The translations under genes and the position numbers were made by a program. From contig OZ244585.1 in assembly GCA_965218105.1 (NCBI GenBank), positions 2,960,597-3,024,596 on the forward strand: a DNA stretch of 64,000 nucleotides. Reading direction: 5' to 3'. Below the pieces are notes generated by a model that was not told the DNA's origin, ran no database searches, and saw only the letters and a program-made list of their open reading frames with translations. Source of the DNA: Pyrinomonadaceae bacterium (GTDB lineage: Bacteria; Acidobacteriota; Blastocatellia; Pyrinomonadales; Pyrinomonadaceae). This document shows, in pieces, positions 1,455 through 63,886 of the stretch. The stretch's first letter is position 1. Every line of letters starts with the position of its first letter.

Positions 1455-3125
1455 TCATACTTTTTTGACCGGATTTCGCCGATACTTATGCGTCACCGGA
1501 CGACGGCGACCGATGCCGATGGCGTTTCGGGAAATTATCAGCGTCGGCGGAAGCTGTCGGCGTTTGAATTCGTTTGCCGGAGATTCGACTTTGTTCAATA
1601 AACTGTAAACTAATTCAGGATTATGTCCTTTGGAAATAATCTCTTGCGGCGAAAATTTGTCTTCAAAATAAAGTTTCAAAATCGGATCTATCAATTCATA
1701 CGGCGGCAGCGAATCCTGGTCAAATTGATTCGGCGCGAGTTCGGCGGACGGTGCTTTTTCGATGATTTCAACCGGAATTATTTCACGTTTCGCGCTTTCG
1801 TTGATGTGGCGCGACAGCGCGTAAACTTCGGTTTTCAGAACGTCGCCGATGACCGCCAAACCGCCGTTCGTGTCGCCGTAAAGCGTACAGTAACCGACGG
1901 CTAATTCCGATTTGTTGCCGGTTGCCAGCACCAATCTGCCTTCAGCGTTGGAAATCGTCATCAAAATCACGCCTCTGAGCCGCGACTGCATATTTTCCGC
2001 CGCCAAATTTTCTCCGCCGTGCGTCGGTTTGTGGAGATTTAATTGTTTGAGCAGAACTTCAAACGCGGCGGAAATCGGTTCGATGCGCGAATCGCAACCG
2101 AGATTTTTGATTAGTTTTTGCGAATGTTTGATACTTCCTTCCGACGAAAAAGGCGACGGCATCATCACTGATAAAACATTTTCCGCGCCGATGGCTTCGG
2201 ACGCGAGAGCGGCGACGATTGCCGAATCAATGCCGCCGGAAAGACCGAGAACGGCTTTGGTGAAACGATTTTTGCGCGCGTAATCTTTGATTCCCAAAAC
2301 CAACGCCTGCCGAATCGCTTCGAGTTCGCCGCCGGTAATTCCGCGCGAATCCGGCTTGCGAACGTCGAGTTCAACCGTTTCGACGAATTCTTCAAACGCC
2401 GCTGCCTGCAAAATTATGTCGCCTTCTTCGTCCGCGATTAAACTCGCGCCGTCGAAAATAATGCCGTCGTTGCCGCCGACTAAATTGACGAAAATGATCG
2501 GTTTTTTCTGCTGTCGGGCGCGATGCGCGACCATATCGCAGCGGAGTTTAATTTTGCCCTTGTTAAACGGCGAAGCGTTGATGGCGACGATCAAATCCGC
2601 GCCGCGCATAATCAGTTCGTCCGCCGGATCAACGTCGTAAAGTCTTTGTTTCCAGAAAGTTTTGTCGTTCCAAAAATCTTCGCAGACGACCACGCCAATC
2701 TTTTGCCCGTTTATCTCAAACATACTGCGCGTCGGCGACGGCTCAAAATATCGCGGATCGTCAAAAACGTCGTATTCGGGCAGCAGAGTTTTATCGGCAA
2801 AACCCAACGATTTGCCGTCGCTCATCACCGCCGCCGAATTAAAAAGCCGGCGCCCGTCGTTTTCTTCGTTGCGCCGAATCGTGCCGACGATGACGATAAT
2901 TCCTTTCGACGCGTCAACTATTTTTTGCAGATGCTCGTCCGCAGTTTCGATAATATCTTTGTCCAAAAACCAATCCTGCGAAGTGTAGCCGTGCGTGGCG
3001 ACTTCGGGAAAAACGATCAAATCCGAACCGTCGTTTTTGGCTTTTTCGATTGCCGACAAAATTTTGGCGACATTGCCTTCAAAGTCGCCGTTCGTCGTGT
3101 TGATTTGTCCGATGGTTACTTTCAT
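1455..3125 (-). CDS. nadE: Glutamine-dependent NAD+ synthetase
   Basis: 556 aa. N-terminal CN-hydrolase domain (FPEVATHGY, VVCEDFW) plus C-terminal PP-loop LGLSGGIDSA NAD synthase domain. Confidence 0.92.
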   Translation of the reverse strand: MKVTIGQINTTNGDFEGNVAKILSAIEKAKNDGSDLIVFPEVATHGYTSQDWFLDKDIIETADEHLQKIVDASKGIIVIVGTIRRNEENDGRRLFNSAAVMSDGKSLGFADKTLLPEYDVFDDPRYFEPSPTRSMFEINGQKIGVVVCEDFWNDKTFWKQRLYDVDPADELIMRGADLIVAINASPFNKGKIKLRCDMVAHRARQQKKPIIFVNLVGGNDGIIFDGASLIADEEGDIILQAAAFEEFVETVELDVRKPDSRGITGGELEAIRQALVLGIKDYARKNRFTKAVLGLSGGIDSAIVAALASEAIGAENVLSVMMPSPFSSEGSIKHSQKLIKNLGCDSRIEPISAAFEVLLKQLNLHKPTHGGENLAAENMQSRLRGVILMTISNAEGRLVLATGNKSELAVGYCTLYGDTNGGLAVIGDVLKTEVYALSRHINESAKREIIPVEIIEKAPSAELAPNQFDQDSLPPYELIDPILKLYFEDKFSPQEIISKGHNPELVYSLLNKVESPANEFKRRQLPPTLIISRNAIGIGRRRPVTHKYRRNPVKKV

Positions 3126-3692
3126 TTAATTTTCTTCGGCGGAGAGTTTTCTGACTAAATTTATCAAAGATTCAGTTGTTTTTGGTGACGCTCCTCGAAA
3201 TATACCGCGCACTTTTCCGTCTTTTATCACAAAAGATTGGGGAACACCATGGAATTTTGAAATGTTAATAAATCCACCTATGAACTTTCCATTTGCCCAA
3301 CCTGATTGAAATTCAACTTTGAAATCATTGACGAATTTCTTAAAGTTTTGCAATTCACTTTTATCATCATCGGGATCAACGGCAATTATTCGCACGTTTT
3401 TCAGGTTTTCGGAATGAAGTTTACCTAACTTTGAAGTTATTGTTTTTGCAGATACTACCCACTCCGTAACAAAACACAAAACAATTGTATCGCTGTTATA
3501 ATCAGCCAATTTTATTTTTTCATCGTCTGTCAGAACGATTTCAGAATTCAACAATTCTTCTGGAACGTCAGGATATTCCTTCAATAATATTTCGTCGGAC
3601 GTTTTAACGGAAGAATTTTCCACCGTTTGCGCGTGAAGATTTTGAAAAGAGAAGATAACCAAAATGATAAGGGATAAATAAATTGTTTTCAT
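3126..3692 (-). CDS. Secreted thioredoxin-fold (TlpA/redoxin-like) protein lacking the CXXC motif
   Basis: Signal peptide, then CFVTEWVVSAKT where redoxins carry WCxxC. Its stop directly abuts the nadE start. Confidence 0.55.
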   Translation of the reverse strand: MKTIYLSLIILVIFSFQNLHAQTVENSSVKTSDEILLKEYPDVPEELLNSEIVLTDDEKIKLADYNSDTIVLCFVTEWVVSAKTITSKLGKLHSENLKNVRIIAVDPDDDKSELQNFKKFVNDFKVEFQSGWANGKFIGGFINISKFHGVPQSFVIKDGKVRGIFRGASPKTTESLINLVRKLSAEEN

Positions 3693-7091: not shown

Positions 7092-9071
7092 GTGTCTTTT
7101 TTTGTCGCGCTGGTAGTTTTTACGGCACTCTGGACTTCGGACTTCGGACTTCGGACTCAAAAAGTTTTCGCGCAGAAAAGAAATTCTCTCGGCTGGGTTT
7201 GGCAAAATCCGCTGCCGCAGGGCAATCCGTTGTATGCGGTTCATTTTGCAAAAGACAAAGAAACAGGTTTTGCCGTCGGCGCGGACAGCACGATTTTGGC
7301 TACGACGGACGGCGGTTTTAATTGGCAAAAACAGATTTCGCCGGTTGATTCCGTATTTTCGGGCGTTTTTGTCAAAGACAATCGAAACGCGATAGTTGTC
7401 GGCGCGCGCGGCACGATTATTTCAACTATCAACGGCGGCAAAGACTGGAAGCAGGTCGAAATTCCGACTAAAGATCATCTTTACAGCGTTACTTTTGCGG
7501 GCGATGAGCTAAATACGGGTTGGGCGGTCGGAACTTACGGTCAAATATTAAAAACAACGGACGGTGGTTCAACGTGGAAATCGCAAGCGAGCGGAACGAG
7601 TGAACAATTATTAAAAGTTTCCGCTTTCGACGCGGAACGAAGCGTCATCGTCGGAACCAACGGAACGGTTTTGACCACCGGAAACGGCAGAAAAACGTGG
7701 AAGGAAAATAAACCGTGCGGAAATGTTTTAATGGCGAGCGCGGCATATCTTTCTGCGGAAAAAATCCTCGTCGCCGGTTACGGCGGCTGTGTTGCCGAAA
7801 GCGCGGACGGCGGCGAAACTTTTCGCAAAATAAATATTTTCAGCCGCGCCGATTTTCTTTCGCTGAGTTTCTCCGACGAAAAAAACGGTTCGATGACCGA
7901 TGCGGGCGGAATGATCTGGCTGACGGGCGACGGCGGAAATACCTGGCTGCCGTTTAATGTGCGGACAAATCCGCGCCTTGTTTCGATGTATTTTGCCGAC
8001 CAATATACCGGTTGGGCGGTCGGCGAAAACGGTTTGATAATCCGCACCGACGACGGCGGCTACAGTTGGCAGCGTCTTTCCGACGGCGGGCGTGAAGATG
8101 TCAACGACCTCGCTTTTTTTGATGAAAGCATCGGCATCGCAGTCGCTTCGCGCGGCAAAACCTGGATTACCAACGACGGCGGCAGAGATTGGATTCCTGT
8201 CTATTCGGGCGTTGAAGAAAACTTGAACGCGCTGGATTTTACCGATTCGGAACACGGAATCGTCGTCGGCGACAAAGGGACGATTCTGCGGACAATCAAC
8301 GGCGGCGCGAGTTGGGGAAAAGGTTTCTCCAACGTCAAAGAAGACCTTCTCGGAACATTTTTTCTCAACGAAAGAAACGGTTTTGCCGTCGGCGCGACCG
8401 GCATAATTCTGCGTACGGATTCGGGCGGCATTTATTGGGGACAAGTTGAATCAGGCACGAAAGCCTGGTTGGAAGATATAAAATTCGTCAATGAAAAAAT
8501 CGGCGTGACAGTCGGCGATAAAGGGACGATTTTGCGGACGGAAGACGGCGGCGCGACTTGGAAAAGCATCACTACGAATCTGAAGGAAAATCTTTACAAA
8601 TTAGATTTTTACGATGAAAAAACCGGTTACGCCGTCGGTGCGGGCGGCACGATTTTGCGGACGGAAGACGGCGGCGAAACGTGGCAGGATCAGGAATCGG
8701 CTTTAAAGATAAATCTTTATGCGATAACGGTTTACAAACGCGACGAAGCGATTGTCGTCGGCGAAAAAGGCGCGGTTTTGCTGACTGCGGATGGCGGCAA
8801 AACCTGGGAAACTCAGCCGAATATCACAAGTAATTCATTGCAGGCAGTCGTTTATCGCGGCGGCACAAATTTGTGGGTTGCCGGACGCGGCGGCGCGATT
8901 CTCAAGCGTTCCGAAACTTTTTCGACCATTAGAACTTCGTCCCCGCTGAAACTTCCGCCGATTTTACGACCCGGCGCGTCCAGAAATAAGTCGAAATCGC
9001 GCACTCCGTTATTGACGATAACCGATGACGGCGACATTTTACCCGCCGTGCCGCCGAAAAAAGATAATTAA
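7092..9071 (+). CDS. BNR/Ycf48-like beta-propeller repeat protein, secreted
   Basis: 659 aa with more than 12 iterations of T(T/I)DGG.(T/N)W motifs. Non-ATG start implied by the track. Confidence 0.8.
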   Translation: MSFFVALVVFTALWTSDFGLRTQKVFAQKRNSLGWVWQNPLPQGNPLYAVHFAKDKETGFAVGADSTILATTDGGFNWQKQISPVDSVFSGVFVKDNRNAIVVGARGTIISTINGGKDWKQVEIPTKDHLYSVTFAGDELNTGWAVGTYGQILKTTDGGSTWKSQASGTSEQLLKVSAFDAERSVIVGTNGTVLTTGNGRKTWKENKPCGNVLMASAAYLSAEKILVAGYGGCVAESADGGETFRKINIFSRADFLSLSFSDEKNGSMTDAGGMIWLTGDGGNTWLPFNVRTNPRLVSMYFADQYTGWAVGENGLIIRTDDGGYSWQRLSDGGREDVNDLAFFDESIGIAVASRGKTWITNDGGRDWIPVYSGVEENLNALDFTDSEHGIVVGDKGTILRTINGGASWGKGFSNVKEDLLGTFFLNERNGFAVGATGIILRTDSGGIYWGQVESGTKAWLEDIKFVNEKIGVTVGDKGTILRTEDGGATWKSITTNLKENLYKLDFYDEKTGYAVGAGGTILRTEDGGETWQDQESALKINLYAITVYKRDEAIVVGEKGAVLLTADGGKTWETQPNITSNSLQAVVYRGGTNLWVAGRGGAILKRSETFSTIRTSSPLKLPPILRPGASRNKSKSRTPLLTITDDGDILPAVPPKKDN

Positions 9072-9223
9072 GAAGCTGTGTTCAAACTCGTTTTTAGTGG
9101 ATTTGTAACCACCAATCTACACTAAAAAACACCAAATAAAACAAAGAAGACAAATTTCGTGTTTAGTAGTGTGCTTTAGTGGTTAAATTTCTTCTCATTG
9201 TCGAGTTTTCAAACAGCTTCTAA
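9069..9223. repeat. MITE-like element, family 3, copy 1 (about 155 bp)
   Basis: Terminal inverted repeats agaagctgtgttcaaactcg ... cgagttttcaaacagcttct. The whole element recurs inverted at 35844-35997. Confidence 0.8.
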
Positions 9224-9258
9224 GTGATAAGTGAAAGGTAATTTGATAAAATAGAATT

Positions 9259-9804
9259 ATGGAAAACAAGAATTTGGAAACAGCAACTTTGGCAGGCGGA
9301 TGTTTTTGGTGTACGGAAGCGGTTTTTGACAATGTGCGCGGCGTTGAAGATGTCGTGTCGGGCTATTCCGGCGGACACACATCAAATCCAACGTATCAGC
9401 AAGTTTGTTCGGAAACGACCGGACACGCCGAAGCCGTGCAGATAAAATTTGATCCGAACGAAATTTCTTACGAGGAAGTTTTGCAGATATTTTTCGGCAC
9501 GCACGACCCGACGACGCTGAACCGACAGGGAAACGATGTCGGCTCGTCATACCGTTCGGCGGTTTTTTATCACTCGCCCGAACAAAAAGAAACCGCCGAA
9601 AAGGTCGTCAAAAATTTGACGGACGAAGACGTTTTCGGCAAACCGATTGTCACTGAAATCACGAAGTTCACAAACTTTTATCCGGCGGAAGATTATCATC
9701 AGAATTATTTTGAAAACAACCCGAACCAGCCGTATTGCGCGGCGGTCGTGTCGCCGAAAGTCGGTAAATTCAGACAGAAATTTGCGGACAGACTGAAAAA
9801 TTAA
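9259..9804 (+). CDS. msrA: Peptide-methionine (S)-S-oxide reductase
   Basis: GGCFWC active-site motif. 181 aa. Confidence 0.93.
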   Translation: MENKNLETATLAGGCFWCTEAVFDNVRGVEDVVSGYSGGHTSNPTYQQVCSETTGHAEAVQIKFDPNEISYEEVLQIFFGTHDPTTLNRQGNDVGSSYRSAVFYHSPEQKETAEKVVKNLTDEDVFGKPIVTEITKFTNFYPAEDYHQNYFENNPNQPYCAAVVSPKVGKFRQKFADRLKN

Positions 9805-9812
9805 AAAATAAA

Positions 9813-10937
9813 ATGTCAATGGTTTTAGATGAAGTAAAAACGGTAAATATCGAAGATTATCTGGCGATGTCGGACGCGGAACTCGACGAACGCATCGAAG
9901 CGGCGCGGGAAAAATTGGGTTCGCGCGTCGTCATTCTCGGTCATCATTATCAGCGCGATGACGTGATTAAACACGCCGATTTAACGGGCGATTCTTACCA
10001 ATTGTCGGTGATGGCTTCGCAGACCGACGCGGAATTTATCGTTTTCTGCGGCGTTCATTTTATGGCGGAATCGGCGAATATTCTGGGAAAACCGAATCAA
10101 AAGGTAATTTTGCCGGATTTGGGCGCGGGCTGTTCGATGGCTGATATGGCGAATATCGAACAGGTCGAAGACGCGTGGGAACAATTACAAGAAATCAGCG
10201 TGGTCAGCGAAACTTCAAAAGTCGCGCCGATGACTTATATGAATTCGACCGCCGCCATTAAAGCGTTTTGCGGGCGCAACGGCGGTGTCGTCTGCACTTC
10301 GTCGAACGCCGTTCCGCTGTTCGACAAATATTTGAAGGAATACGACAAAATGTTTTTCTTTCCCGACCAGCATCTCGGCAGAAATACGGGTTTGAAGTTC
10401 GGCATTCCGCTCGACAAAATGGCTCTGTGGAATCCGCACGAGGAACTCGGCGGCAGCACGGAAGAAGAATTGCGCGACGCGCGGCTGATTTTGTGGCGCG
10501 GACACTGTTCGGTTCACGGCAGATTCAAACCGTGGCACGTTGATCAAGTTCGCAAACAAACGCCGGAAATCAAAGTTCTCGTCCATCCCGAATGTATGTA
10601 TGAAGTCGTCGAAAAATCAGATTTAAATGGTTCGACTTCGTTCATTATCAAAACCATCGAAAACGCGCCGAGCGGTTCAAAATGGGCGGTCGGCACGGAA
10701 GTAAATTTGGTAAACCGTTTGCAGGAACGCTTTCCCGAACAGGAAATTCGCCTGCTCGCGCCGGATTTATGTATGTGCGCGACGATGTATCGCATCGCGC
10801 CGCAAAATCTCGCGTGGGCTTTGGAGAATTTAGTCGCCGGACGCGTCGTCAACGAAATCGTCGTTGACGAAGAAACAAAAAATCAGGCGTTAGTCGCGCT
10901 TGAACGAATGATCGAATTTACGGAAAAAGGTCAATAA
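9813..10937 (+). CDS. nadA: Quinolinate synthase
   Basis: 374 aa. VILGHHYQRDDV, FCGVHFMAES, VHPEC motifs. Confidence 0.92.
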   Translation: MSMVLDEVKTVNIEDYLAMSDAELDERIEAAREKLGSRVVILGHHYQRDDVIKHADLTGDSYQLSVMASQTDAEFIVFCGVHFMAESANILGKPNQKVILPDLGAGCSMADMANIEQVEDAWEQLQEISVVSETSKVAPMTYMNSTAAIKAFCGRNGGVVCTSSNAVPLFDKYLKEYDKMFFFPDQHLGRNTGLKFGIPLDKMALWNPHEELGGSTEEELRDARLILWRGHCSVHGRFKPWHVDQVRKQTPEIKVLVHPECMYEVVEKSDLNGSTSFIIKTIENAPSGSKWAVGTEVNLVNRLQERFPEQEIRLLAPDLCMCATMYRIAPQNLAWALENLVAGRVVNEIVVDEETKNQALVALERMIEFTEKGQ

Positions 10938-49687: not shown

Positions 49688-49746
49688 TGGCGGAGAGAAC
49701 AGGAGTCGAACCTGCATAGGCTTACGCCCGGTAGTTTTCAAGACTA
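49688..49746 (-). repeat. attL: 59-bp duplicate of the tRNA-Ser 3' half
   Basis: Base-for-base identical to 63802-63860. Lacks the tRNA 5' half. Confidence 0.9.
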
Positions 49747-49880: not shown

Positions 49881-49904
49881 TTTGGGGTAAAAAACGGGGT
49901 AACG
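49881..49904. repeat. 24-bp island-internal direct repeat, left copy (possible arm-type integrase site)
   Basis: tttggggtaaaaaacggggtaacg, identical at 63722-63745. Contains an internal GGGGTAA duplication. Confidence 0.6.
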
Positions 49905-50005: not shown

Positions 50006-51157
50006 ATGAGCAAAAAAATTAGAAAATACAAAGAAAGAGGCATTCGAGCCGAATTTTCGGCGGTCAATAATTTAGGAGTCAGAGAATACGAAGCAAAGAC
50101 TTTTAACGAACATAATACTCAAAAACGTAACGAGCGTTCGGCAAACGACTGGTTAAATAAAACAGCTAAAATTTTTCAGGCGAAAGGCACATTGCAAAAT
50201 GAAGACCTAACTTTTGCCGCTTATGTCGAAATGAAGAAAAAAACTCATTTGAAGGAAGCCGTCATCAATAACGGGAAACGAGTTTCGGGCTTAAAAGGCT
50301 TTGACGCACACGGAATATACTATTTGAATCCGTTAGTCGAAAAATTCGGGAAAGCGAAAATTCGGCTTATTACGGCGCACGAAATTGACGTTTATCGAAA
50401 TGAGAGATTAGACGATAAGAAAGATTCGGGAAAAACCTATAAAGGCACAACACGAACGATTGCGACTGTGAACCGTGAATTATCACTATTGAGAAAAATC
50501 TTTAATCTTGCGTTACAAGACAGAGTAATAAATTTTACGCCGAAATTCTCAATTTCGATGGCAGATGAAAATTCACGGGAACGAATTTTAGACTATGCCG
50601 AACAAGCAAGGTTAATAGAAGCATTCGACTATCGCAACAAACAAGGCAGACAAACCGTGTTGCATCTCAAACCAGTTATTATTTTCTTACTAGACACGGC
50701 TTGCAGATTCGGCGAAATGAAAAAATTGGAATGGAGGGATGTCAATTTTGACACCGGCATTATTACGCTTAGGGCATCGAATACCAAAACAGCCAAAGAA
50801 CGCATTATACCGATGTCGGAGCGTGTAAAGAGTGAGTTAAATAAATTATACGAATCAAAAATAAATGAATCGGTCTTTAACATCACGGAAGCTAGACGCG
50901 GTTGGAAAACACTCTGCAAAGCCGCCGACATTACCGGATGCCGCATCCACGATTTACGTCATACGGCAATCACTAATTTTGTTCGTTCGGGAATGCGAAC
51001 GGAGATAGCAATGGCAATTTCAGGTCATACCGAACTGCGAACTTTTCGCCGCTATTTGAACTTTATGAAAGATGATTTTATAAATGCTTTTGAAAGTTTC
51101 CAAACTCATTACATCGCACAGCAAACGCCCGAAATTGTCAGTGTGGCTAACAACTAA
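50006..51157 (+). CDS. int: Tyrosine recombinase/integrase
   Basis: TACRFGE (Arg), HDLRHT (HxxR), GHT, RRY (Tyr). 383 aa. Confidence 0.92.
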   Translation: MSKKIRKYKERGIRAEFSAVNNLGVREYEAKTFNEHNTQKRNERSANDWLNKTAKIFQAKGTLQNEDLTFAAYVEMKKKTHLKEAVINNGKRVSGLKGFDAHGIYYLNPLVEKFGKAKIRLITAHEIDVYRNERLDDKKDSGKTYKGTTRTIATVNRELSLLRKIFNLALQDRVINFTPKFSISMADENSRERILDYAEQARLIEAFDYRNKQGRQTVLHLKPVIIFLLDTACRFGEMKKLEWRDVNFDTGIITLRASNTKTAKERIIPMSERVKSELNKLYESKINESVFNITEARRGWKTLCKAADITGCRIHDLRHTAITNFVRSGMRTEIAMAISGHTELRTFRRYLNFMKDDFINAFESFQTHYIAQQTPEIVSVANN

Positions 51158-51325: not shown

Positions 51326-51547
51326 TTGTCAGAGGCAAAACCAATTATGTTTGATGATACTGGAATCGTAGAATACGAAATCGAAAGGGAAAAGTGGAAC
51401 GACCAACCCGAAACGAACTTTGATGCAATTCAAACAAAGTCAGGTTACGGCGGATGCGGATGTTTGAGTTTGAAGGCTTTTTTATTATTTTTTGCCGGAA
51501 TGATGCTTTTCCGTCTGTTCGGCGACGTGCTAAAATTTATTTTTTAG
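51326..51547 (+). CDS. Small protein with a C-terminal TM helix
   Basis: 73-aa ORF (possibly starting at the internal ATG). Hydrophobic tail LKAFLLFFAGMMLFRLF. Confidence 0.4.
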   Translation: MSEAKPIMFDDTGIVEYEIEREKWNDQPETNFDAIQTKSGYGGCGCLSLKAFLLFFAGMMLFRLFGDVLKFIF

Positions 51548-51627
51548 CAATATTGTTTGTATCTGACATTGGAATTTTTTATTGTAAATTTAAGTATTAA
51601 ATATTAGCTTCAACCCAAGATAAAGTT

Positions 51628-52833
51628 ATGGATAAACTCTCATTTTCTCTACCAAAATATGATTTTGCTTTTAACAATTTTTATAACGATTTATACGATG
51701 ACCTACATTTACAAGATGAACTTTTGAGAAGATTTCCGCCTAAGTTAATGGCTCATTCTGGAACAACCAGATGGCTTAGTAAGCCCGATGTTTTAGAAGC
51801 CCCTTATAGACAACATAAGAATACTACAAGCGGTGAAATTGAAATTATTACTAAAACCGATGCCCTTAAATTTAAGGAGTTTTTACAGAATTTGATAATT
51901 CCTATAAGAGATAAGGTTAAAGAACACACAATAGAAAATATTAACCAAACCTGTGAGATGACGGGAAATAAAGTAGATGCCGTAAATCAAAATGTTTGGG
52001 ATGCTTATATCGAAGCCATTGAAAAAATGAAAATGGTTTTCGATGAAGATGGCAATCCGAATTTTTTGATTCATCCGCCGGAGTTTTACGAAAAACTTTC
52101 AAAAACCGACCCAACAGTTGACCAGAGAAATAAAATTGGAAAAATCTTTGGGAGAAAGAGAGAAGAATATATTTTAAGAAAAGGTTCTCGAAAATTAACC
52201 AAATCAAATCGCAAATCCAGACAAGTAGTTTCTGAATTAAATGTTGATGTTAGTTCCCTTAAATTTAATTTATCTTTACCTCAATATGAATTGGCAATAA
52301 CTCAACTACTTAGAGATGTAAATAATGGATATGAACAATTAGATCCTATTTTAAGTCAAGTCCAGAAAGTCCCCGTAGCTCACGATGGCTTTACTCGTCA
52401 GGTGAGCGAACCTACTATTCTTGAAACCCCAATGAAAGATTATTTAGTAGATACTTCAATAAAGTTAGATTGTTTCCGTAATACAGATACCGAATATTTT
52501 CGGGATTTTCTTTGGAAAATGCTAGAAGAAATTAATGGTGAAGTAAAAAAGCATATATTTGAGACGATTTCTCAGACTTGCGATGCTACTGGAAATAGTG
52601 TTGACGCAGAAGGAAAAAACTTTTGGGATTCCTACAATGAAATGTTAGAAACTGCTGATATGCGTTTTGATGAAAACGGAAACCATAATTATAAAATTTA
52701 TATCCACCCCGACAGGCGCAAAGATATTGAGGCTAATCCACCATCAGAAAAACAATTAACAAAAAGTAAAGAAATTATCGAAAGGAAGAAGCAAACTTAT
52801 TATGCTCAGAAACGCACTCGAAGATTATCTTAA
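51628..52833 (+). CDS. Unknown protein made of two homologous halves of about 190 aa (cargo gene A)
   Basis: 401 aa. Residues 4-190 and 210-400 align, for example INQTCEMTGNKVDA/ISQTCDATGNSVDA. No family recognised. Confidence 0.7.
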   Translation: MDKLSFSLPKYDFAFNNFYNDLYDDLHLQDELLRRFPPKLMAHSGTTRWLSKPDVLEAPYRQHKNTTSGEIEIITKTDALKFKEFLQNLIIPIRDKVKEHTIENINQTCEMTGNKVDAVNQNVWDAYIEAIEKMKMVFDEDGNPNFLIHPPEFYEKLSKTDPTVDQRNKIGKIFGRKREEYILRKGSRKLTKSNRKSRQVVSELNVDVSSLKFNLSLPQYELAITQLLRDVNNGYEQLDPILSQVQKVPVAHDGFTRQVSEPTILETPMKDYLVDTSIKLDCFRNTDTEYFRDFLWKMLEEINGEVKKHIFETISQTCDATGNSVDAEGKNFWDSYNEMLETADMRFDENGNHNYKIYIHPDRRKDIEANPPSEKQLTKSKEIIERKKQTYYAQKRTRRLS

Positions 52834-54415
52834 CTCAATAATTGAAAGAGATTTCGATTATCCACTTACTTCGCTTTTACAAGCTAAGGGATTTTACGAC
52901 ATTCATTTTACTCACGGTAGAAATGAAATTGGAAAGGACTTTATAGCAAAAAAACTCGAAAATGGAATTGAATATCAGTATGCAATTCAATCTAAAAGGG
53001 GAAATATAGGTCAGCCAGACCTTGACAAAATACAAGGTCAATTACTATTAGCCTCAATTTCTGGATTGTCCCATCCGCAATTTAATAAAAGTCTGGAACG
53101 CCGAGTTATATTAGTAACAACTGGAAGGCTTATTGGGAATGCTCCAATAATTCTTCAAGATTTTAATGATGTATTAGAAAATGAATATCAAAAAAATGGA
53201 ATTGAATTTTGGGGACAGGAGCGACTTATTCAAGATGCAGACGAATTTGGTTTTTCGGGCATACATCAAAATACTGCCAGAGAATTAAAAGGAATCAGTC
53301 AGTTTTACCTAACATACAGCAAAGCTATTGAGGGTAATTTATCCGACAGAGAAATTGAAGAATTTTCACAGCTTTGGTTAGATGAAAAATTAGATTATAA
53401 GAAAAGAATTTTTAGAGCATCAATAGAAGCAGAAATCATTGCGTCTAAACTTATTGAAGGTGAACAACTCTATGAAGCAATGATAACGTATTTAAGTCTT
53501 GCTAGAGTTGTAATGCAAGTAACTTACGAAACCGATGATAATTTTGTTATTGAAATTTATAAAGAAATTCTAAATGAGAAAATCCTTACATTTTGTAGAA
53601 AATTCATCAATCAAATAAAAACAGAATGGGAACAGGTTGGGCGTTCATTATTACACCTCTGTTTAAGACATAGTTCTTTTCCTATGCTTCATTATATTAT
53701 TTGGTGTGTGAGGGTATCTGAAATAGCTTCTCTAAACTATTTTCTAACTCAAGATGAATCCGAAAAAAATGAGGTTATAGAATTTATAAAGAGTTTTAGT
53801 GAAACGGAAGAAGGTTTCGGGCATCTTCCAAGTGATAGATATGCAGTTTCTTTGGTTTGGATAATACTTGCTTTACTGCAATCTGATAAGCGAGAAGAAG
53901 CAATTGAAATAGTAAGGGAAAGCGCAATATGGCTTTTTGACCGTGTTGAAAATGGGTTTGGATTAGCTCGTTATGAAGCAGACGAACAAACAGAAACTAA
54001 CACTTTACTCGGTTATCCTTTTGACTTTGTAAATGTTCAAAAAAATACAAGTTCTTTCCTTGCTACAATTCTTGCTGACCTCGCCGCTTTTATTGGCGAC
54101 AAAGAATTTTACAGCGATATTATAAATGATATTCAGGCTTGTGAAATTTCATACAACTATTGGCAATTTCCAGATACAAGAGCAATTTTCACAATTTTGA
54201 CGGAAGAGTGTAGAAACTTTTCAAATATTCCACATCAAGATTCAATAAACAATTTCGATGATTTTGAATATGCCTCACATTTAAAAGATGAGCCAAAATC
54301 ATTTCAAATTACTGATAAAGTAGGAAACGAAAGTCTGATTTTGTTATCTGTCTTACTCAAAGATAGATATTTTCCTACAATGTGGAAACAAATAATTTCA
54401 AGCAAAAGAATTTAA
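52802..54415 (+). CDS. Mrr-cat-like PD-(D/E)xK nuclease domain fused to an unknown helical domain of about 380 aa (cargo gene B)
   Basis: FDYPLTSLLQAKGF..GRNEIGKDFIAKK..YAIQSKRGNIG..VILVTTGRL matches the Mrr catalytic-domain pattern. Overlaps gene A by 32 nt. Confidence 0.72.
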   Translation: MLRNALEDYLNSIIERDFDYPLTSLLQAKGFYDIHFTHGRNEIGKDFIAKKLENGIEYQYAIQSKRGNIGQPDLDKIQGQLLLASISGLSHPQFNKSLERRVILVTTGRLIGNAPIILQDFNDVLENEYQKNGIEFWGQERLIQDADEFGFSGIHQNTARELKGISQFYLTYSKAIEGNLSDREIEEFSQLWLDEKLDYKKRIFRASIEAEIIASKLIEGEQLYEAMITYLSLARVVMQVTYETDDNFVIEIYKEILNEKILTFCRKFINQIKTEWEQVGRSLLHLCLRHSSFPMLHYIIWCVRVSEIASLNYFLTQDESEKNEVIEFIKSFSETEEGFGHLPSDRYAVSLVWIILALLQSDKREEAIEIVRESAIWLFDRVENGFGLARYEADEQTETNTLLGYPFDFVNVQKNTSSFLATILADLAAFIGDKEFYSDIINDIQACEISYNYWQFPDTRAIFTILTEECRNFSNIPHQDSINNFDDFEYASHLKDEPKSFQITDKVGNESLILLSVLLKDRYFPTMWKQIISSKRI

Positions 54416-54665
54416 TTTTGTTAAATTTATTGGATTACATTCTATATTGCTCTCTCATATCTCTATAACTCTGCTCATCCATTCCTGATTTGAGTTCTGG
54501 AAACTTGTTTGTTTCATAGAATTGGTTTTCACCCATTTTGCAAATACTTGAGTATTCATTACCTTTAATATCTTTATAAGAGGCTGCAATCATTTCCCCT
54601 TTTATCATAAACGGTAATTCGACTATTCCATTGGAGGCAATAGGATAAAAAGAAATTTGAGTTCC

Positions 54666-54917
54666 CTACTTATCATCTGAATCTTTGAGGGAAAATATAA
54701 TTGACATTGCAACGCCTTGACCGACGTTTTTAATTTGCCACGTTTCTGTTCTTATCCGAGAGAAAACTAACACAGGCATAATACTGGCTTTCTGCGTTTT
54801 GTAAAAAGAATAATACGAAAAGCCGAATGCAAAAAGAGACACAATCAAAGACAAAAGTGCAATTGATAATTCCATAATCAAACTTAATATGGAGTTAATT
54901 ATATTGGAAATCATCAA
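54666..54917 (-). CDS. Small 2-TM membrane protein
   Basis: 83 aa with two hydrophobic helices. The same frame reopens immediately after its TAG stop. Confidence 0.5.
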   Translation of the reverse strand: MMISNIINSILSLIMELSIALLSLIVSLFAFGFSYYSFYKTQKASIMPVLVFSRIRTETWQIKNVGQGVAMSIIFSLKDSDDK

Positions 54918-55203
54918 CTTTGTCGAGATTCTGACAAAGCCGTTTCACCGGCATTTACTATTTCTATCAGAAGAGATTTTATATGTAAATGGTTTTTCAA
55001 TTGAGAGTTTCAAGAATTTTTAGGTCTTCATTATTAAAGACAGTAACGATTTTAAGATTTTCATAATTTAATTTTGTTTTTACGAATTTAACGAACTTAT
55101 TGTAAAGTATTTAATAACAATTCAGAAACGGTTTTTATAAACTTAGTAACTCAATCTGAGCGATTACGAATGAAGTATTCGTAAAACATAATAAAGTAAA
55201 AAA

Positions 55204-57435
55204 ATGGACAAATTATTTTCAGACTTTGATTTTTCATCACTCGATTCACCCGATTTCAAAGAAGATTCGGTTCGAGAAGATTTGATAATGCCGATTCTTA
55301 AAGAACTCGGTTATTCATCACAGAGCGAAAATAAAATAATTCGTAGTAAATCTGTTCGGCATAAATTAGTTCAAACAGGTTCGGGCAAACACAAATTAAA
55401 TAGTATTCCAGATTATTTATTAGAAGTCGGCGGAAAATACGTTTGGGTATTGGACGCAAAAGCACCGAACGAAGACATAAAGACCGGAAAGAATGTTGAA
55501 CAAACTTATTTTTATGCGATACATTCGGAAATTCGAGTAGAGTTTTATGCTGTTTGCAATGGTAGGGAATTTATTCTTTTTCACATTAGCCAACCCGAAG
55601 CCGTTCTTTATTTTTCACTTCCTGAAATCGAAAAACACTGGCACGAATTAGAAAAACATCTTTCGCCGAGTGCTTTTGATAAGTCGCAAAATAAATTTGA
55701 AAGAACCAATGCAGAAATTGAATTTGACTACCTTTCTAAAAATGTTCTGAATGAAATTAAAAGTATTAAAAAACAATCTTCAAAAAGACATTTCGGAGTT
55801 CACGGTTATTTTACAAAACAGGCATTTCAAATTCTTCAAAAATATATTGAAAATTTCACGAAGCCAAACGATTTAGTTCTCGACCCATTCGGCGGAACGG
55901 GTGTAACACTAATTGAATCTTTGATACTTGGAAGAAGGGCAATTCATATTGACTTAAATCCTTTATCAGTATTTTGGGTAAGAACTTTGATTGAGCCTGT
56001 AAATTTTGAAAGCATCTTTAATGAATTTGACAGAATAAAAAATGAGTTCAACTCGAATAAACCGACAACTAAAATTGCTATTGAAAGATTTCTTGAAAAA
56101 TATCCGTTTCCAAGCGGAATAAAACTTCCGAAAACATCAGATGTTGACACAATAGAGAAATTGTTTAGTAGAATTCAGTTATCACACTTGGCATATCTCA
56201 AGCACTTGATTTTACAAGTTAAGGATAAAAAAGTTAGAAACCAATTATTACTTGCGTTTTCCAGTTCTCTTAATAAATTTAATTTAACTTTTCATTATAC
56301 AAAATCAGACGGTGGCGGCGATTCTGCTGTGTTTCGTTACTATCGTTATCGAATTGCGCCAAGTCCGGGCATTTTGGATTTAATGAATATCTTTGAAACA
56401 AAACTAAAGAGGCTGATTTCGGCAAAAAAAGAAATCTTACCTTTAATAAACACAAAAACAATTCAGAACTCACAAATTGAAAAAGGCACAGCAACGAACC
56501 TAGATAAAATAGAAAATGAATCCGTAGATTATATTTATACAGACCCACCCTATGGAAAGAAAATTCAATATCTCGACCTTTCGATTATGTGGAATTCTTG
56601 GCTTGATTTTGAAGTTTCCGAAGCAGATTACGAATTAGAAGCTATTGAAGGCGGCGAACACAAAAAGACAAAAAATGACTATTCAAATTTAATTGCCGAA
56701 TCAATTAAAGAAATGTATAGAGTTTTGAAATTTGACCGTTGGATGTCGTTTGTTTTTCAACATCAAGACCCTGCATACTGGCATTTAATTGTAGATACGG
56801 CGGAAAAAGTCGGTTTTGAATATGCGGGAGCAGTCAAACAAAACAACGGGCAATCAAGTTTCAAGAAAAGACAGAATCCTTTCACAGTTCTTTCCGGTCA
56901 ACTAATTATCAACTTCAAAAAAGTTCGTAACCCAAAATCAATTATGAAAGCAGATTTAGGGGCAGACATCACCGATTTAATTACTCAGTCAATCGAAGGT
57001 ATAATTGCTAAAAACAACGGCGCAACGGTTGATGATATTAACAATGAATTGATTATTAGAGGCTTAGAACTTGGCTTCTTAGATGTTTTGAGTAAAAATT
57101 ATGCAGATATTACACCATTTTTATTAGCTAACTTTGATTATCACGAAGACACACAAACCTATCACCTAAAGAAAAATACAAAATTTAAGGCACATATCCC
57201 GGTTGAAGTGAGAATAAAATATTATGTTGTTTCGATGATGCGGAGACTAGCAAGACAAAATGAATATCCGAGTTTTGATGATATAATTTTAGAAATTATG
57301 CCGCTTTTGCGTAATGGTATAACACCCGAACATCAAACAATTCTCACAGTTTTAGAAGACATTGCAATTCAAGTCGGCGGCGACCAATGGAAATTAAAAG
57401 AATCAGGTCAGGGAAATTTATTTGACTTAGTATAA
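55204..57435 (+). CDS. HsdR_N-type PD-DxK nuclease fold fused to a DNA (N6-A/N4-C) methyltransferase (cargo gene C)
   Basis: IPDYLLEV..VWVLDAKAP (residues 68-88), LVLDPFGGTGVT (AdoMet motif I, residues 224-235), IYTDPPYG (motif IV, residues 445-451). 743 aa. Confidence 0.82.
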   Translation: MDKLFSDFDFSSLDSPDFKEDSVREDLIMPILKELGYSSQSENKIIRSKSVRHKLVQTGSGKHKLNSIPDYLLEVGGKYVWVLDAKAPNEDIKTGKNVEQTYFYAIHSEIRVEFYAVCNGREFILFHISQPEAVLYFSLPEIEKHWHELEKHLSPSAFDKSQNKFERTNAEIEFDYLSKNVLNEIKSIKKQSSKRHFGVHGYFTKQAFQILQKYIENFTKPNDLVLDPFGGTGVTLIESLILGRRAIHIDLNPLSVFWVRTLIEPVNFESIFNEFDRIKNEFNSNKPTTKIAIERFLEKYPFPSGIKLPKTSDVDTIEKLFSRIQLSHLAYLKHLILQVKDKKVRNQLLLAFSSSLNKFNLTFHYTKSDGGGDSAVFRYYRYRIAPSPGILDLMNIFETKLKRLISAKKEILPLINTKTIQNSQIEKGTATNLDKIENESVDYIYTDPPYGKKIQYLDLSIMWNSWLDFEVSEADYELEAIEGGEHKKTKNDYSNLIAESIKEMYRVLKFDRWMSFVFQHQDPAYWHLIVDTAEKVGFEYAGAVKQNNGQSSFKKRQNPFTVLSGQLIINFKKVRNPKSIMKADLGADITDLITQSIEGIIAKNNGATVDDINNELIIRGLELGFLDVLSKNYADITPFLLANFDYHEDTQTYHLKKNTKFKAHIPVEVRIKYYVVSMMRRLARQNEYPSFDDIILEIMPLLRNGITPEHQTILTVLEDIAIQVGGDQWKLKESGQGNLFDLV

Positions 57436-57585
57436 AATCTTGAAAGTATAAATTTACTAGAGGTTTCGTGATATTGGAGCTTTTAACTTTGTCGGATTAG
57501 ATGAAAATTTTTGGCTTTGTGTCTAAAGTCGATTTTGAAACGGACTTTTGAGATTGGTTAAGCAAGTTTTGAAAAAAACAAAAAT

Positions 57586-57643
57586 AAATGGAGGGGCAAC
57601 TGCCCTCCATTTAAATAAACGGAGGGCAGTTGCCCCTCCATTT
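57586..57643. terminator. Nested-palindrome bidirectional terminator
   Basis: aaatggaggggcaactgccctccattt aaat aaacggagggcagttgcccctccattt. Each arm is itself near-palindromic. Confidence 0.7.
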
Positions 57644-58876: not shown

Positions 58877-59245
58877 TCAGTAATTTTTTTGGAGTTGTTT
58901 TTCAAACTCTAATTTGCGCTGTGCATTTCGTTTCGTTGTGGCATTTTTGACTTGTATTTGAGGCACAAGGGTTTTTTCAAGTTCAGCCCTTATCACCAAT
59001 CGTTTTATTTCTGCCAAGCTACGCTCCACCGCAAAATTTTCATCTAAATCTGGAATGCCGGTAGAGTCTTCGATGTAACCAGAATCTGAAAAACTCGCAA
59101 ATTTCGATTGAGATTCAAATTTTCGCTTCAATTCTGCTAATCTGCGTTTGCGCTCCGAATCGTCAATACTCGAATTTAAGTAATCGAAGTGAGATTTTTG
59201 CGAAAGATATTTTGCTAATTCAATTTTATTCATCATTTGTAACAC
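58877..59245 (-). CDS. Coiled-coil hypothetical protein
   Basis: 122 aa, charged heptad-like sequence. Overlaps the upstream ORF by 20 nt. Confidence 0.5.
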   Translation of the reverse strand: MLQMMNKIELAKYLSQKSHFDYLNSSIDDSERKRRLAELKRKFESQSKFASFSDSGYIEDSTGIPDLDENFAVERSLAEIKRLVIRAELEKTLVPQIQVKNATTKRNAQRKLEFEKQLQKNY

Positions 59246-59621
59246 CCGTTAATTTATTGAGTTTTGCCGTCAAGATTTTCAAATCTTTTCGGTCTTGAGA
59301 AACGCCTTGTTCAAAAAAAGAAAGTTCAAGATTTGCTTGATTAAGTTGTCTTTGCGCCGCTTCAATTTGAGGTTCGATAATCCGCACGGCATCTATTTTA
59401 CCTTTTATCGTTTGCAATAATTGTTCACGCTTTTCACCCGAATTCGATTGACGGTTTTTTATTTCGGCAATTTCACGCTCTAAAGTTTGAACTTCGCTAC
59501 TACTCTGATTTTTGAGTAAACTTTCACGCTCCAAAATCAGTTTTTCGTATTTATCACGATTTTCAGATGTTTTGAAAATCGAAGATATTTGTTTATCTAA
59601 TTCTGTAATATCTGTATTCAT
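59226..59621 (-). CDS. Coiled-coil hypothetical protein
   Basis: 131 aa, Glu/Lys/Gln-rich heptads. Confidence 0.5.
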   Translation of the reverse strand: MNTDITELDKQISSIFKTSENRDKYEKLILERESLLKNQSSSEVQTLEREIAEIKNRQSNSGEKREQLLQTIKGKIDAVRIIEPQIEAAQRQLNQANLELSFFEQGVSQDRKDLKILTAKLNKLTGVTNDE

Positions 59622-59638
59622 AATTTTTTATTTTCAGA

Positions 59639-59983
59639 TTATCCGAATCTGTTTTTACCTCGTATTCCGTCGAATTTTGAACCGATAAAAATATCACGCT
59701 GTTTTTCTATTTCGGCAATTTGAGAGCGAAGGTTACGAACATCATTTTCAGCTAAGTATTTTAATGCTGTCCAACCGGCGTGTAATTTTGTCATTTCTAC
59801 AAATTCAATTGTCATTTCATCAATTTCAACAGCTAAAGAATCCATAGATTTTTTATGTGTTTGGGCAAGTTCGAGTTTGTTTTCAATCTCTAACTCTAAT
59901 CCCATAATCATTCGCTGAAATGCCAATTTCTTTTCTCCAAAACTATTGGCTTCGACTTCTTGACGCTCCGATTCGTTTTCCAT
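59639..59983 (-). CDS. Coiled-coil hypothetical protein
   Basis: 114 aa, helical. Confidence 0.5.
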   Translation of the reverse strand: MENESERQEVEANSFGEKKLAFQRMIMGLELEIENKLELAQTHKKSMDSLAVEIDEMTIEFVEMTKLHAGWTALKYLAENDVRNLRSQIAEIEKQRDIFIGSKFDGIRGKNRFG

Positions 59984-63721: not shown

Positions 63722-63745
63722 TTTGGGGTAAAAAACGGGGTAACG
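63722..63745. repeat. 24-bp island-internal direct repeat, right copy
   Basis: Identical to 49881-49904. Confidence 0.6.
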
Positions 63746-63801: not shown

Positions 63802-63886
63802 TGGCGGAGAGAACAGGAGTCGAACCTGCATAGGCTTACGCCCGGTAGTTTTCAAGACTACTGCAATACCATTATGCGATCTCTCC
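63802..63886 (-). tRNA. tRNA-Ser (anticodon UGA)
   Basis: GGAGAGA acceptor pairing with TCTCTCC, G73 discriminator, encoded CCA. Anticodon stem GTAGT/ACTAC with loop CTTGAAA, long variable arm, TTCGACT T-loop. Confidence 0.9.

Follow-up and report, generated by a model that had tools for sequence, protein, structure and literature searches.

Results

Organization of the locus

The window analysed here is a stretch of 64,000 nucleotides (nt) of contig OZ244585.1 from a Pyrinomonadaceae bacterium, and the genes in question lie in its mobile element, downstream of an integrase gene. Five open reading frames (ORFs) were considered by the initial annotation to make up a single candidate defence locus, i.e., an ORF of 73 amino acids (aa), gene A, gene B, an 83-aa hydrophobic ORF and gene C. 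All five are present (Table 1), but they do not belong to one system. A and B form a two-gene nuclease cassette found in many bacterial phyla, gene C is a separate nuclease-methyltransferase fusion, and the small ORFs are without homologues in the related loci.

Linkage of A and B

Profiles of B and of the unit of ~190 aa that occurs twice in gene A (hereafter A-unit) were run over loci obtained from a scan of 185,579 species genomes and of metagenome contigs. Wherever a B homologue had upstream sequence (~70 of 75 loci), an A-unit gene was located directly upstream of it and on the same strand. The exceptions were loci starting at the end of a contig and weak partial matches that covered only the nuclease domain. 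Divergent A-units with 22-25% identity likewise preceded an overlapping B gene of 540-551 aa. The pair was present in ~75 loci from at least 10 phyla. According to the record titles, these included Acidobacteriota, Chloroflexota, Eremiobacterota, Bacillota, Actinomycetota, Ignavibacteria, Bacteroidota, Planctomycetota, Myxococcota, Verrucomicrobiota, Nitrospira, Gemmatimonadota and Proteobacteria, and one metagenome bin was labelled Nitrososphaera, although this bin label is unconfirmed. On the Rhodococcus plasmid pdjl-6-4 the two genes are annotated as "hypothetical protein" and "restriction endonuclease"; B-type genes carry "restriction endonuclease" or "hypothetical" labels and A-type genes "hypothetical". 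A tblastn search of plasmids with two B homologues, aimed at canonical OloB (see below), returned only this Rhodococcus locus again.

The possibility of a third component was rejected, since all-against-all clustering of the ORFs within 6 kb gave no ORF family present in more than 5 of ~73 loci. A and B are a self-contained and strictly linked two-gene nuclease cassette. The functional link between them that had been proposed is borne out by co-occurrence and by an overlap conserved across phyla; its proposed extension to gene C is not, because A accompanied B in every locus with upstream DNA and C never accompanied the pair outside the window. No description of the A-B pair was found in literature searches covering Mrr plus partner, PF04471, the accessions and two papers on candidate systems.

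The A/B junction

Gene B was noted earlier to begin 32 nt inside the end of gene A, and the junction sequence and the related loci agree with this. The overlap between the stop of A and the start of B was exactly 32 nt in 50 of 74 loci. Most other overlaps measured 35, 41, 44, 50, 53, 56 or 59 nt with the frame relation unchanged, and a 16-nt gap took the place of the overlap in a single locus (L009). The overlap is conserved far above chance. The start codon of B was kept, usually behind a purine-rich run resembling a Shine-Dalgarno sequence. The sequences therefore point to re-initiation as the way in which translation of A and B is coupled, and not to a frameshift fusion. A programmed frameshift joining A to B was rejected on the grounds that the B start and purine run occurred in nearly all loci and that one locus has the 16-nt gap.

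The basic tail of the A-units has the motif [KR][KR]RxR[KR]L. The motif was also kept in L009, where there is no overlap, and in upstream copies (A1) whose ends lie clear of B. Selection therefore acts on the tail itself.

Gene A and the A-unit family

As initially annotated, gene A is composed of two homologous halves. They share 35% identity, and the A-unit hidden Markov model (HMM) matches them at 2e-73 and 5e-75. Only 13 close homologues of the whole gene were found. Upstream of B homologues with ~65% identity there are two separate genes of ~190 aa, which align to the two halves of gene A, and the second of them ends 32 nt inside B. In locus L002 the first of these two genes shares 61% identity with the N-terminal half of gene A. 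Separate A1 and A2 genes were observed in loci L002, L004, L005, L010 and L087, whereas most loci contained one A-unit, among them that of Paenibacillus baekrokdamisoli (NZ_AP019308.1, 4387463-4409055), and fused forms were restricted to two 50%-identity clusters of the closest relatives. Judging from these sequences, the ancestral form of A is a single A-unit; in the lineage of gene A the unit was duplicated and the copies were then fused. Locus L087, from a lineage distant from that of the window, carries tandem A-units at positions 204-806 and 796-1383 followed by B at 1349-2971, and the first of the two has an A-unit HMM match of 2e-31. The partner has therefore been duplicated either repeatedly or long ago.

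An exhaustive profile search, with clustering at 50% identity, recovered 1,953 clusters of A-units, of which 990 had E≤1e-10. Gene A itself, which had been described as belonging to no recognisable family, gave no match in Pfam, NCBIfam, PADLOC or PHROG. Among 124 sampled members of the family none had a credible Pfam or PADLOC match, apart from an extension in protein P0299. This protein of 279 aa has an Xre-type helix-turn-helix (HTH; HTH_31, 2.6e-11) at the N-terminus of its A-unit, which is the sole domain fusion observed in the family and hints at autoregulation. The AlphaFold model of gene A was moderately confident (predicted local distance difference test, pLDDT, 70.5; predicted template modelling score, pTM, 0.48) and predicts a mixed alpha/beta structure. 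Foldseek found no match for it in PDB and BFVD, and profile searches of PDB sequences were negative for both A and B. Over their last 42 residues the two A-units are strongly basic, with net charges of +9 and +7.

Gene B

The core of B was initially annotated as an Mrr-type PD-(D/E)xK nuclease with D46 and Q63-x-K65 in the active site, and its remainder as uncharacterised and helical. Both parts of this description hold. The single Pfam match of B was Mrr_cat (PF04471) at residues 15-81 (E 1.1e-5; 25.9 bits against a gathering threshold of 21). D46, Q63 and K65 were invariant or at least 95% conserved among 51-53 homologues, and E15, E42, K45, D46, Q63 and K65 were at least 95% conserved when 51 homologues (24-68% identity) were compared. 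Conservation in these 51 sequences peaks in the active site itself (E15, H35, E42-x-G-K45-D46-F, Q59, Q63-x-K65), with conserved W, R, D and E residues scattered over the helical domain. At least 312 B homologues were found, nearly all of them full length. B is predicted to cleave DNA.

An AlphaFold model built from 53 sequences (pLDDT 88, pTM 0.88) consists of an alpha/beta nuclease domain (residues 1-150), an all-helical part (~159-446) and a small mixed C-terminal part. In Foldseek searches the nuclease domain matched the cleavage domain of FokI (probability 1.00; root-mean-square deviation 4.0 over 156 columns) and also Cap4. The helical part, with a net charge of -21, weakly resembled TPR, 14-3-3, ARM and designed repeat proteins, and no overall relative of the model was found in PDB, with nothing better than E 0.036. 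An N-terminal Mrr/Cap4-like nuclease followed by helical repeats is likewise found in Avs and other STAND effectors. However, B has only 537 aa, an obligate partner gene and no nucleoside triphosphatase (NTPase) module, and a STAND/Avs-like reading of B was rejected because neither a Walker A motif nor an NTPase match in Pfam was found. The Walker A motif is missing from A and C as well.

A protein of 503 aa at positions 1679-3190 of locus L082 has the domain order opposite to that of B, with an EFGKDF-type Mrr-like nuclease C-terminal to a helical region. It adjoins an Eco57I-type methyltransferase and has no A-unit.

B shares the catalytic fold and the D...QxK motif with Mrr and other type IV enzymes (PF04471). 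In contrast to these, its catalytic domain is N-terminal rather than C-terminal, the Mrr_N winged helix is missing, and an obligate small partner and a large helical domain are present. A-B could nevertheless be a two-subunit restriction enzyme, of type IV or specific for a sequence or structure, in which a basic A dimer reads the DNA and B cuts it. The Mrr_cat domain, the highly basic C-terminal helix of A and the lack of any cognate methyltransferase conserved beside the pair would suit such an enzyme, as would the name "restriction endonuclease" given to B in the source databases, and a FokI-like nuclease, which needs to dimerise, could be well served by a dimeric partner. However, neither A nor B contains a modification-reading domain such as Mrr_N or SRA in Pfam or NCBIfam, and A has no recognisable DNA-binding fold (Mrr_N, SRA or winged helix), the Foldseek search being blank. 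The Mrr/FokI/Cap4 fold alone does not imply dependence on DNA modification, and it serves modification-independent effectors such as FokI and Cap4 too. This explanation is considered improbable.

Similarity of the B family to OloB

Olokun is a defence system of two proteins, OloA and OloB, reportedly introduced by Millman et al. in 2022. The PADLOC model of OloB (PDLC03926, 556 positions) was matched by 21 of 32 diverse B homologues, with a best E value of 7.3e-16. The alignments were colinear from the N-terminus over as many as 420 residues, with examples at residues 5-148 against model positions 4-155, 38-381 against 39-401 and 16-436 against 17-453. By these profile matches the B family is a remote relative of OloB.

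It had been claimed earlier that the locus fits no named defence system. With regard to type I and type III restriction-modification (RM), BREX and DISARM this stands. No ResIII/SNF2 helicase or translocase, specificity subunit, PglZ/BrxC or DrmA/B was detected among the island proteins with Pfam, PADLOC and NCBIfam, and the Walker A motif is missing from A, B and C. The claim has to be qualified for the B family, given its relationship to OloB, and among named families the A-units matched none.

Gene C

The reading of gene C as an HsdR_N-type nuclease fold joined to an amino-methyltransferase agrees with a weak HSDR_N match and with a split N6_N4_Mtase match, of which one part covers the S-adenosylmethionine motif (residues 162-253) and the other the DPPY motif near residue 447. 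D70, D84-x-K86, FGG and DPPY were invariant in 11 full-length homologues. The best PADLOC matches were PglXI (3.3e-41, in the methyltransferase part only) and type II methyltransferases.

Homologues of C were found in 22 metagenome loci, many of them full length with 55-74% identity. None of these loci contained an A-unit, B or any other gene of the island. Conversely, C was absent from ~85 other A-B loci. This includes the closest genome (L085), in which A is 71% identical and the genes downstream of A-B encode a TPR protein, an AAA_15/21 ATPase and SRAP. No neighbour of C was conserved among the C loci: GlnRS, NUDIX and thioesterase genes accompanied it in one and Prim-Pol and AAA_22 genes in another. 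Taken together, the lack of A and B in C loci, the lack of C in A-B loci and the varied neighbours indicate that C is an autonomous nuclease-methyltransferase fusion. The fusion is modular, since a Nostoc plasmid (NZ_CP026686.1, 39974-40405) carries a counterpart of its N-terminal part, with 52% identity, as a separate "HsdR N-terminal domain" gene.

Based on its domain composition, C is a candidate type IIG-like RM enzyme on a single polypeptide, with putative nuclease and methyltransferase activities. Like the type IIG/IIL enzymes such as MmeI, it is a stand-alone gene with an N-terminal PD-(D/E)xK domain, an amino-methyltransferase and a C-terminal domain, and besides HSDR_N (2e-4) it weakly matches MmeI_N (0.008, below the cut-off). 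Unlike in those enzymes, the methyltransferase is N6_N4_Mtase (PF01555) and D12-like rather than gamma-class N6_Mtase/Eco57I, and motif I precedes DPPY at a distance of ~200 aa. The MmeI/Eco57I-type architecture is not found in C, as no N6_Mtase or Eco57I match was obtained in Pfam.

A-B and C are two independent modules and not parts of a five-gene unit. A single five-gene system after the initial annotation, in which C would methylate self DNA and A-B would act on foreign DNA, could draw on the fact that the genes adjoin each other within one island and that a nuclease and a methyltransferase are both present. However, with C missing from all other A-B loci, even the closest, with A and B missing from 22 of 22 C loci, and with small ORFs that have no homologues in the fetched loci and of which the 83-aa ORF lies on the opposite strand, it can hardly be correct. 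The paradox seen earlier in an Mrr-like nuclease beside a methyltransferase also disappears once the two are assigned to separate modules.

Small ORFs

The 73- and 83-aa ORFs both contain strongly hydrophobic segments. No homologue of these two or of a 57-aa ORF was found in any of ~109 fetched loci, and none of the three had a family in Pfam, NCBIfam or PADLOC; PHROG was also blank for the 73- and 83-aa ORFs. The 83-aa ORF belongs with neither module. The same is true of the 73-aa ORF, which may not be a gene at all.

Genomic neighbourhood of A-B loci

Of 9 annotated A-B loci, 7 had defence-type genes no more than 8 kb away, a qualitative count that is not read as enrichment. They included type I and type IIG RM, ThsB-TIR with SLATT, TIR_2, nSTAND3-Mrr and an OLD-like endonuclease. 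Integrase, resolvase and transposase genes were also common. When 148 flanking ORFs were pooled and searched with Pfam and PADLOC, the picture, again qualitative, was a mixture of defence, mobile-element and housekeeping genes. The context of A-B is consistent with defence.

In locus L086 the pair is flanked by an Mrr_cat/NA-iREase1 protein (1-309) and by an nSTAND3 protein with an Mrr-like domain (8321-10882), so that this island is a dense cluster of Mrr-fold effectors.

The mobile element

The cargo was initially assigned to a mobile element integrated at a tRNA gene, and the borders, the integrase and the drop in GC content agree with this. In the GC profile of the window a block of ~0.33 stands out against ~0.47 in the flanking DNA. 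It is bounded by a perfect direct repeat of 59 nt, the right copy of which is the 3' part of tRNA-Ser(TGA), and the element between the repeats measures 14.1 kb. Besides the integrase and the genes treated above, Pfam searches identified a primase-like gene (DUF6371/zinc-ribbon) and another of AAA_25/DnaB_C-like type.

Another direct repeat without mismatches, 24 nt long (TTTGGGGTAAAAAACGGGGTAACG), is found just within both ends of the island, at 49881-49904 and 63722-63745; its copies may be arm-type binding sites of the integrase. The hairpin directly after gene C is probably a bidirectional terminator that sets the cargo apart from the replication module. Three adjoining small ORFs of 122, 131 and 114 aa occupy the reverse strand at 58877-59983, with the cargo on one side and the primase-like gene on the other. 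Their sequences abound in E, K, Q and L and resemble coiled coils; they had no PHROG match.

Table 1. Positions of genes, domains and other features of the mobile element in the window
Feature	Position	Strand	Description
Left attachment repeat	49688-49746	none	Copy of the 3' part of tRNA-Ser; the drop in GC content begins here
Tyrosine integrase of the island	50006-51157	+	Phage_integrase 4.8e-20
73-aa ORF	51326-51547	+	Hydrophobic segment at residues 44-73; no family match
Gene A, 401 aa	51628-52833	+	Two fused paralogous A-units of ~190 aa
Gene A, unit 1	51628-52200	+	Basic helix, then tail RKGSRKLT
Gene A, unit 2	52255-52830	+	Basic helix, then tail KRTRRLS
Dual-coding junction, 32 nt	52802-52833	+	C-terminus of A YAQKRTRRLS-stop; in the +1 frame, N-terminus of B MLRNALEDYL
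Gene B, 537 aa	52802-54415	+	N-terminal nuclease and helical domain
Gene B, nuclease domain (aa 1-155)	52802-53266	+	PD-(D/E)xK; E15, D33, E42, K45-D46, Q63-x-K65
Gene B, remainder	53267-54415	+	Acidic alpha-helical part (aa ~156-450) and small alpha/beta C-terminal part
57-aa ORF	54435-54608	-	No family match; unsupported
83-aa hydrophobic ORF	54666-54917	-	No credible family
Gene C, 743 aa	55204-57435	+	HsdR_N-type PD-(D/E)xK, amino-methyltransferase and C-terminal domain of ~170 aa
Gene C, nuclease-type domain (aa 18-126)	55255-55581	+	Weak HSDR_N 2e-4; D70, D84, K86
Gene C, methyltransferase	motif I FGG at aa ~229-231, DPPY at aa 447-450	+	Split N6_N4_Mtase 6.5e-20
Hairpin	57585-57638	none	20-bp stem with T-rich flanks, directly after gene C
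tRNA-Ser(TGA)	63802-63886	-	Portion 63802-63860 is the right attachment repeat

Discussion

The most probable reading of the locus, to which a probability of roughly 0.6 is given, is that two independent defence-type modules, the Olokun-like A-B pair and the type IIG-like gene C, are carried as cargo by the tRNA-Ser element. Olokun is a validated and poorly understood anti-phage system, in which OloA and OloB form a 2:2 complex of ~278 kDa with adjacent PD-(D/E)xK domains; OloA is described as adaptin-like and without a Walker A motif, and OloB as having an N-terminal helical domain (bioRxiv 10.1101/2025.07.10.664194). In vitro it degraded DNA of the phages T7, SECphi17 and SPO1 but not E. coli or plasmid DNA, and the complex was lost upon mutation of the nuclease active site (bioRxiv 10.1101/2025.07.10.664194). 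Both systems are two-gene operons that combine a PD-(D/E)xK nuclease of ~540-556 aa with a partner that is not an NTPase, and the colinear match of the B family to the OloB profile spans the nuclease and extends into the helical part. A dimeric logic is also plausible for both, considering the 2:2 complex of Olokun and the duplicated and fused A-unit of the window. By analogy, A-B plausibly works in a similar way to Olokun, and an anti-phage role of the pair would follow from the same comparison.

Several observations weigh against this reading. B of the window did not match the OloB model at E≤0.1; in PADLOC it gave a weak nuclease-only match and nothing else, so that its link to OloB depends on transitive homology through its relatives. 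The helical N-terminus described for OloB is odd in view of the first ~155 positions of the profile, which align to the nuclease domain of B. No match to OloA in PADLOC was obtained for any of the 124 A-units, for gene A of the window or for two further A-units. The A-unit of ~190 aa is also much smaller than OloA, at ~680 aa as estimated from the 278-kDa 2:2 complex, and its predicted mixed alpha/beta structure contains no adaptin-like solenoid. Since A is without similarity to OloA and much smaller, the locus is not Olokun as defined, and it falls outside the PADLOC rules for Olokun; the 32-nt dual-coding junction and the invariant basic tail of A-B were not found described for that system either. 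The complex of A and B and its stoichiometry are proposed here by analogy. Furthermore, an identity of 52-83% over 120 B proteins is atypical of fast-evolving immune sensors, many A-B loci are flanked by housekeeping genes (ATP synthase, NrdR), and no B homologue was found in the viral contigs of IMG/VR.

The last three points, i.e., the unusually good conservation of B, the location of some loci among housekeeping genes and the negative search of viral contigs, would rather suit a role of A-B outside defence; examples are the repair or recombination of DNA and functions in the life cycle of mobile elements. However, the patchy spread across phyla and the variable neighbours are those of horizontally moving accessory genes, RM, TIR, STAND and OLD genes are frequent nearby, and OloB, to which the B family is homologous, is a nuclease validated in defence. 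Such a role is regarded as very improbable.

With respect to mechanism, the duplication and fusion of the A-unit argue that A normally acts as a dimer. In the Olokun-like model proposed for A-B, an A dimer, here a fused pseudo-dimer, would bind two B subunits, and the basic C-terminal tail of A might dock on the acidic helical domain of B. The complex would either restrain the FokI-like nuclease domains or direct them at invading DNA, and the overlap of the two genes would set the ratio of A to B.

A similar arrangement could possibly be explained by a toxin-antitoxin (TA) or addiction module, in which B is a nuclease toxin and A a proteinaceous antitoxin that binds it, either stabilising the element or causing abortive infection. 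B would then be set free when A is lost or degraded, and selective cutting of foreign DNA would not be its task. A small upstream gene that overlaps a larger downstream gene in fixed coupling, the strict co-occurrence without a third partner and the frequent location on integrative elements or plasmids are all in concordance with a TA module. The Xre-type HTH of P0299 resembles that of many antitoxins, and the breakage of the Olokun complex by mutations of the nuclease active site fits a partner located near the active site. On the other hand, 123 of 124 A-units contain no DNA-binding or known antitoxin domain, a toxin of 540 aa with a large conserved helical domain is untypical of type II TA, and in the related Olokun system it is the assembled complex that cleaves phage DNA selectively in vitro. 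A TA module is thus considered unlikely, and it overlaps with the Olokun-like model in that abortive infection is defence too.

The Olokun-like model can be extended, with a good deal of doubt, to the view that A-B represents an Olokun-related immune nuclease family spread across phyla, in which OloA is replaced by a ~190-aa partner of a fold not seen before whose tail gates the DNase. If this is true, the tail of A would be a tether or an inhibitory peptide, and the pair would be a minimal model for the control of Olokun-type nucleases.

Candidate nuclease-based defence pairs are common; the partner family, the dual-coding junction and the link to Olokun make A-B a useful lead among them. By labels, the A-unit family extends over one archaeal bin and more than 10 bacterial phyla; it is locked to a nuclease gene, although Pfam, NCBIfam, PADLOC and PHROG contain no model of it and a structural relative was not found. 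A joint model of A and B would allow defence-finding tools to detect the cassette. Gene C, an ordinary-looking RM candidate, adds a conserved family of HsdR_N-methyltransferase fusions. For Olokun, a system whose mechanism is largely open, the tie to A-B gives a hypothesis and a much smaller partner to dissect.

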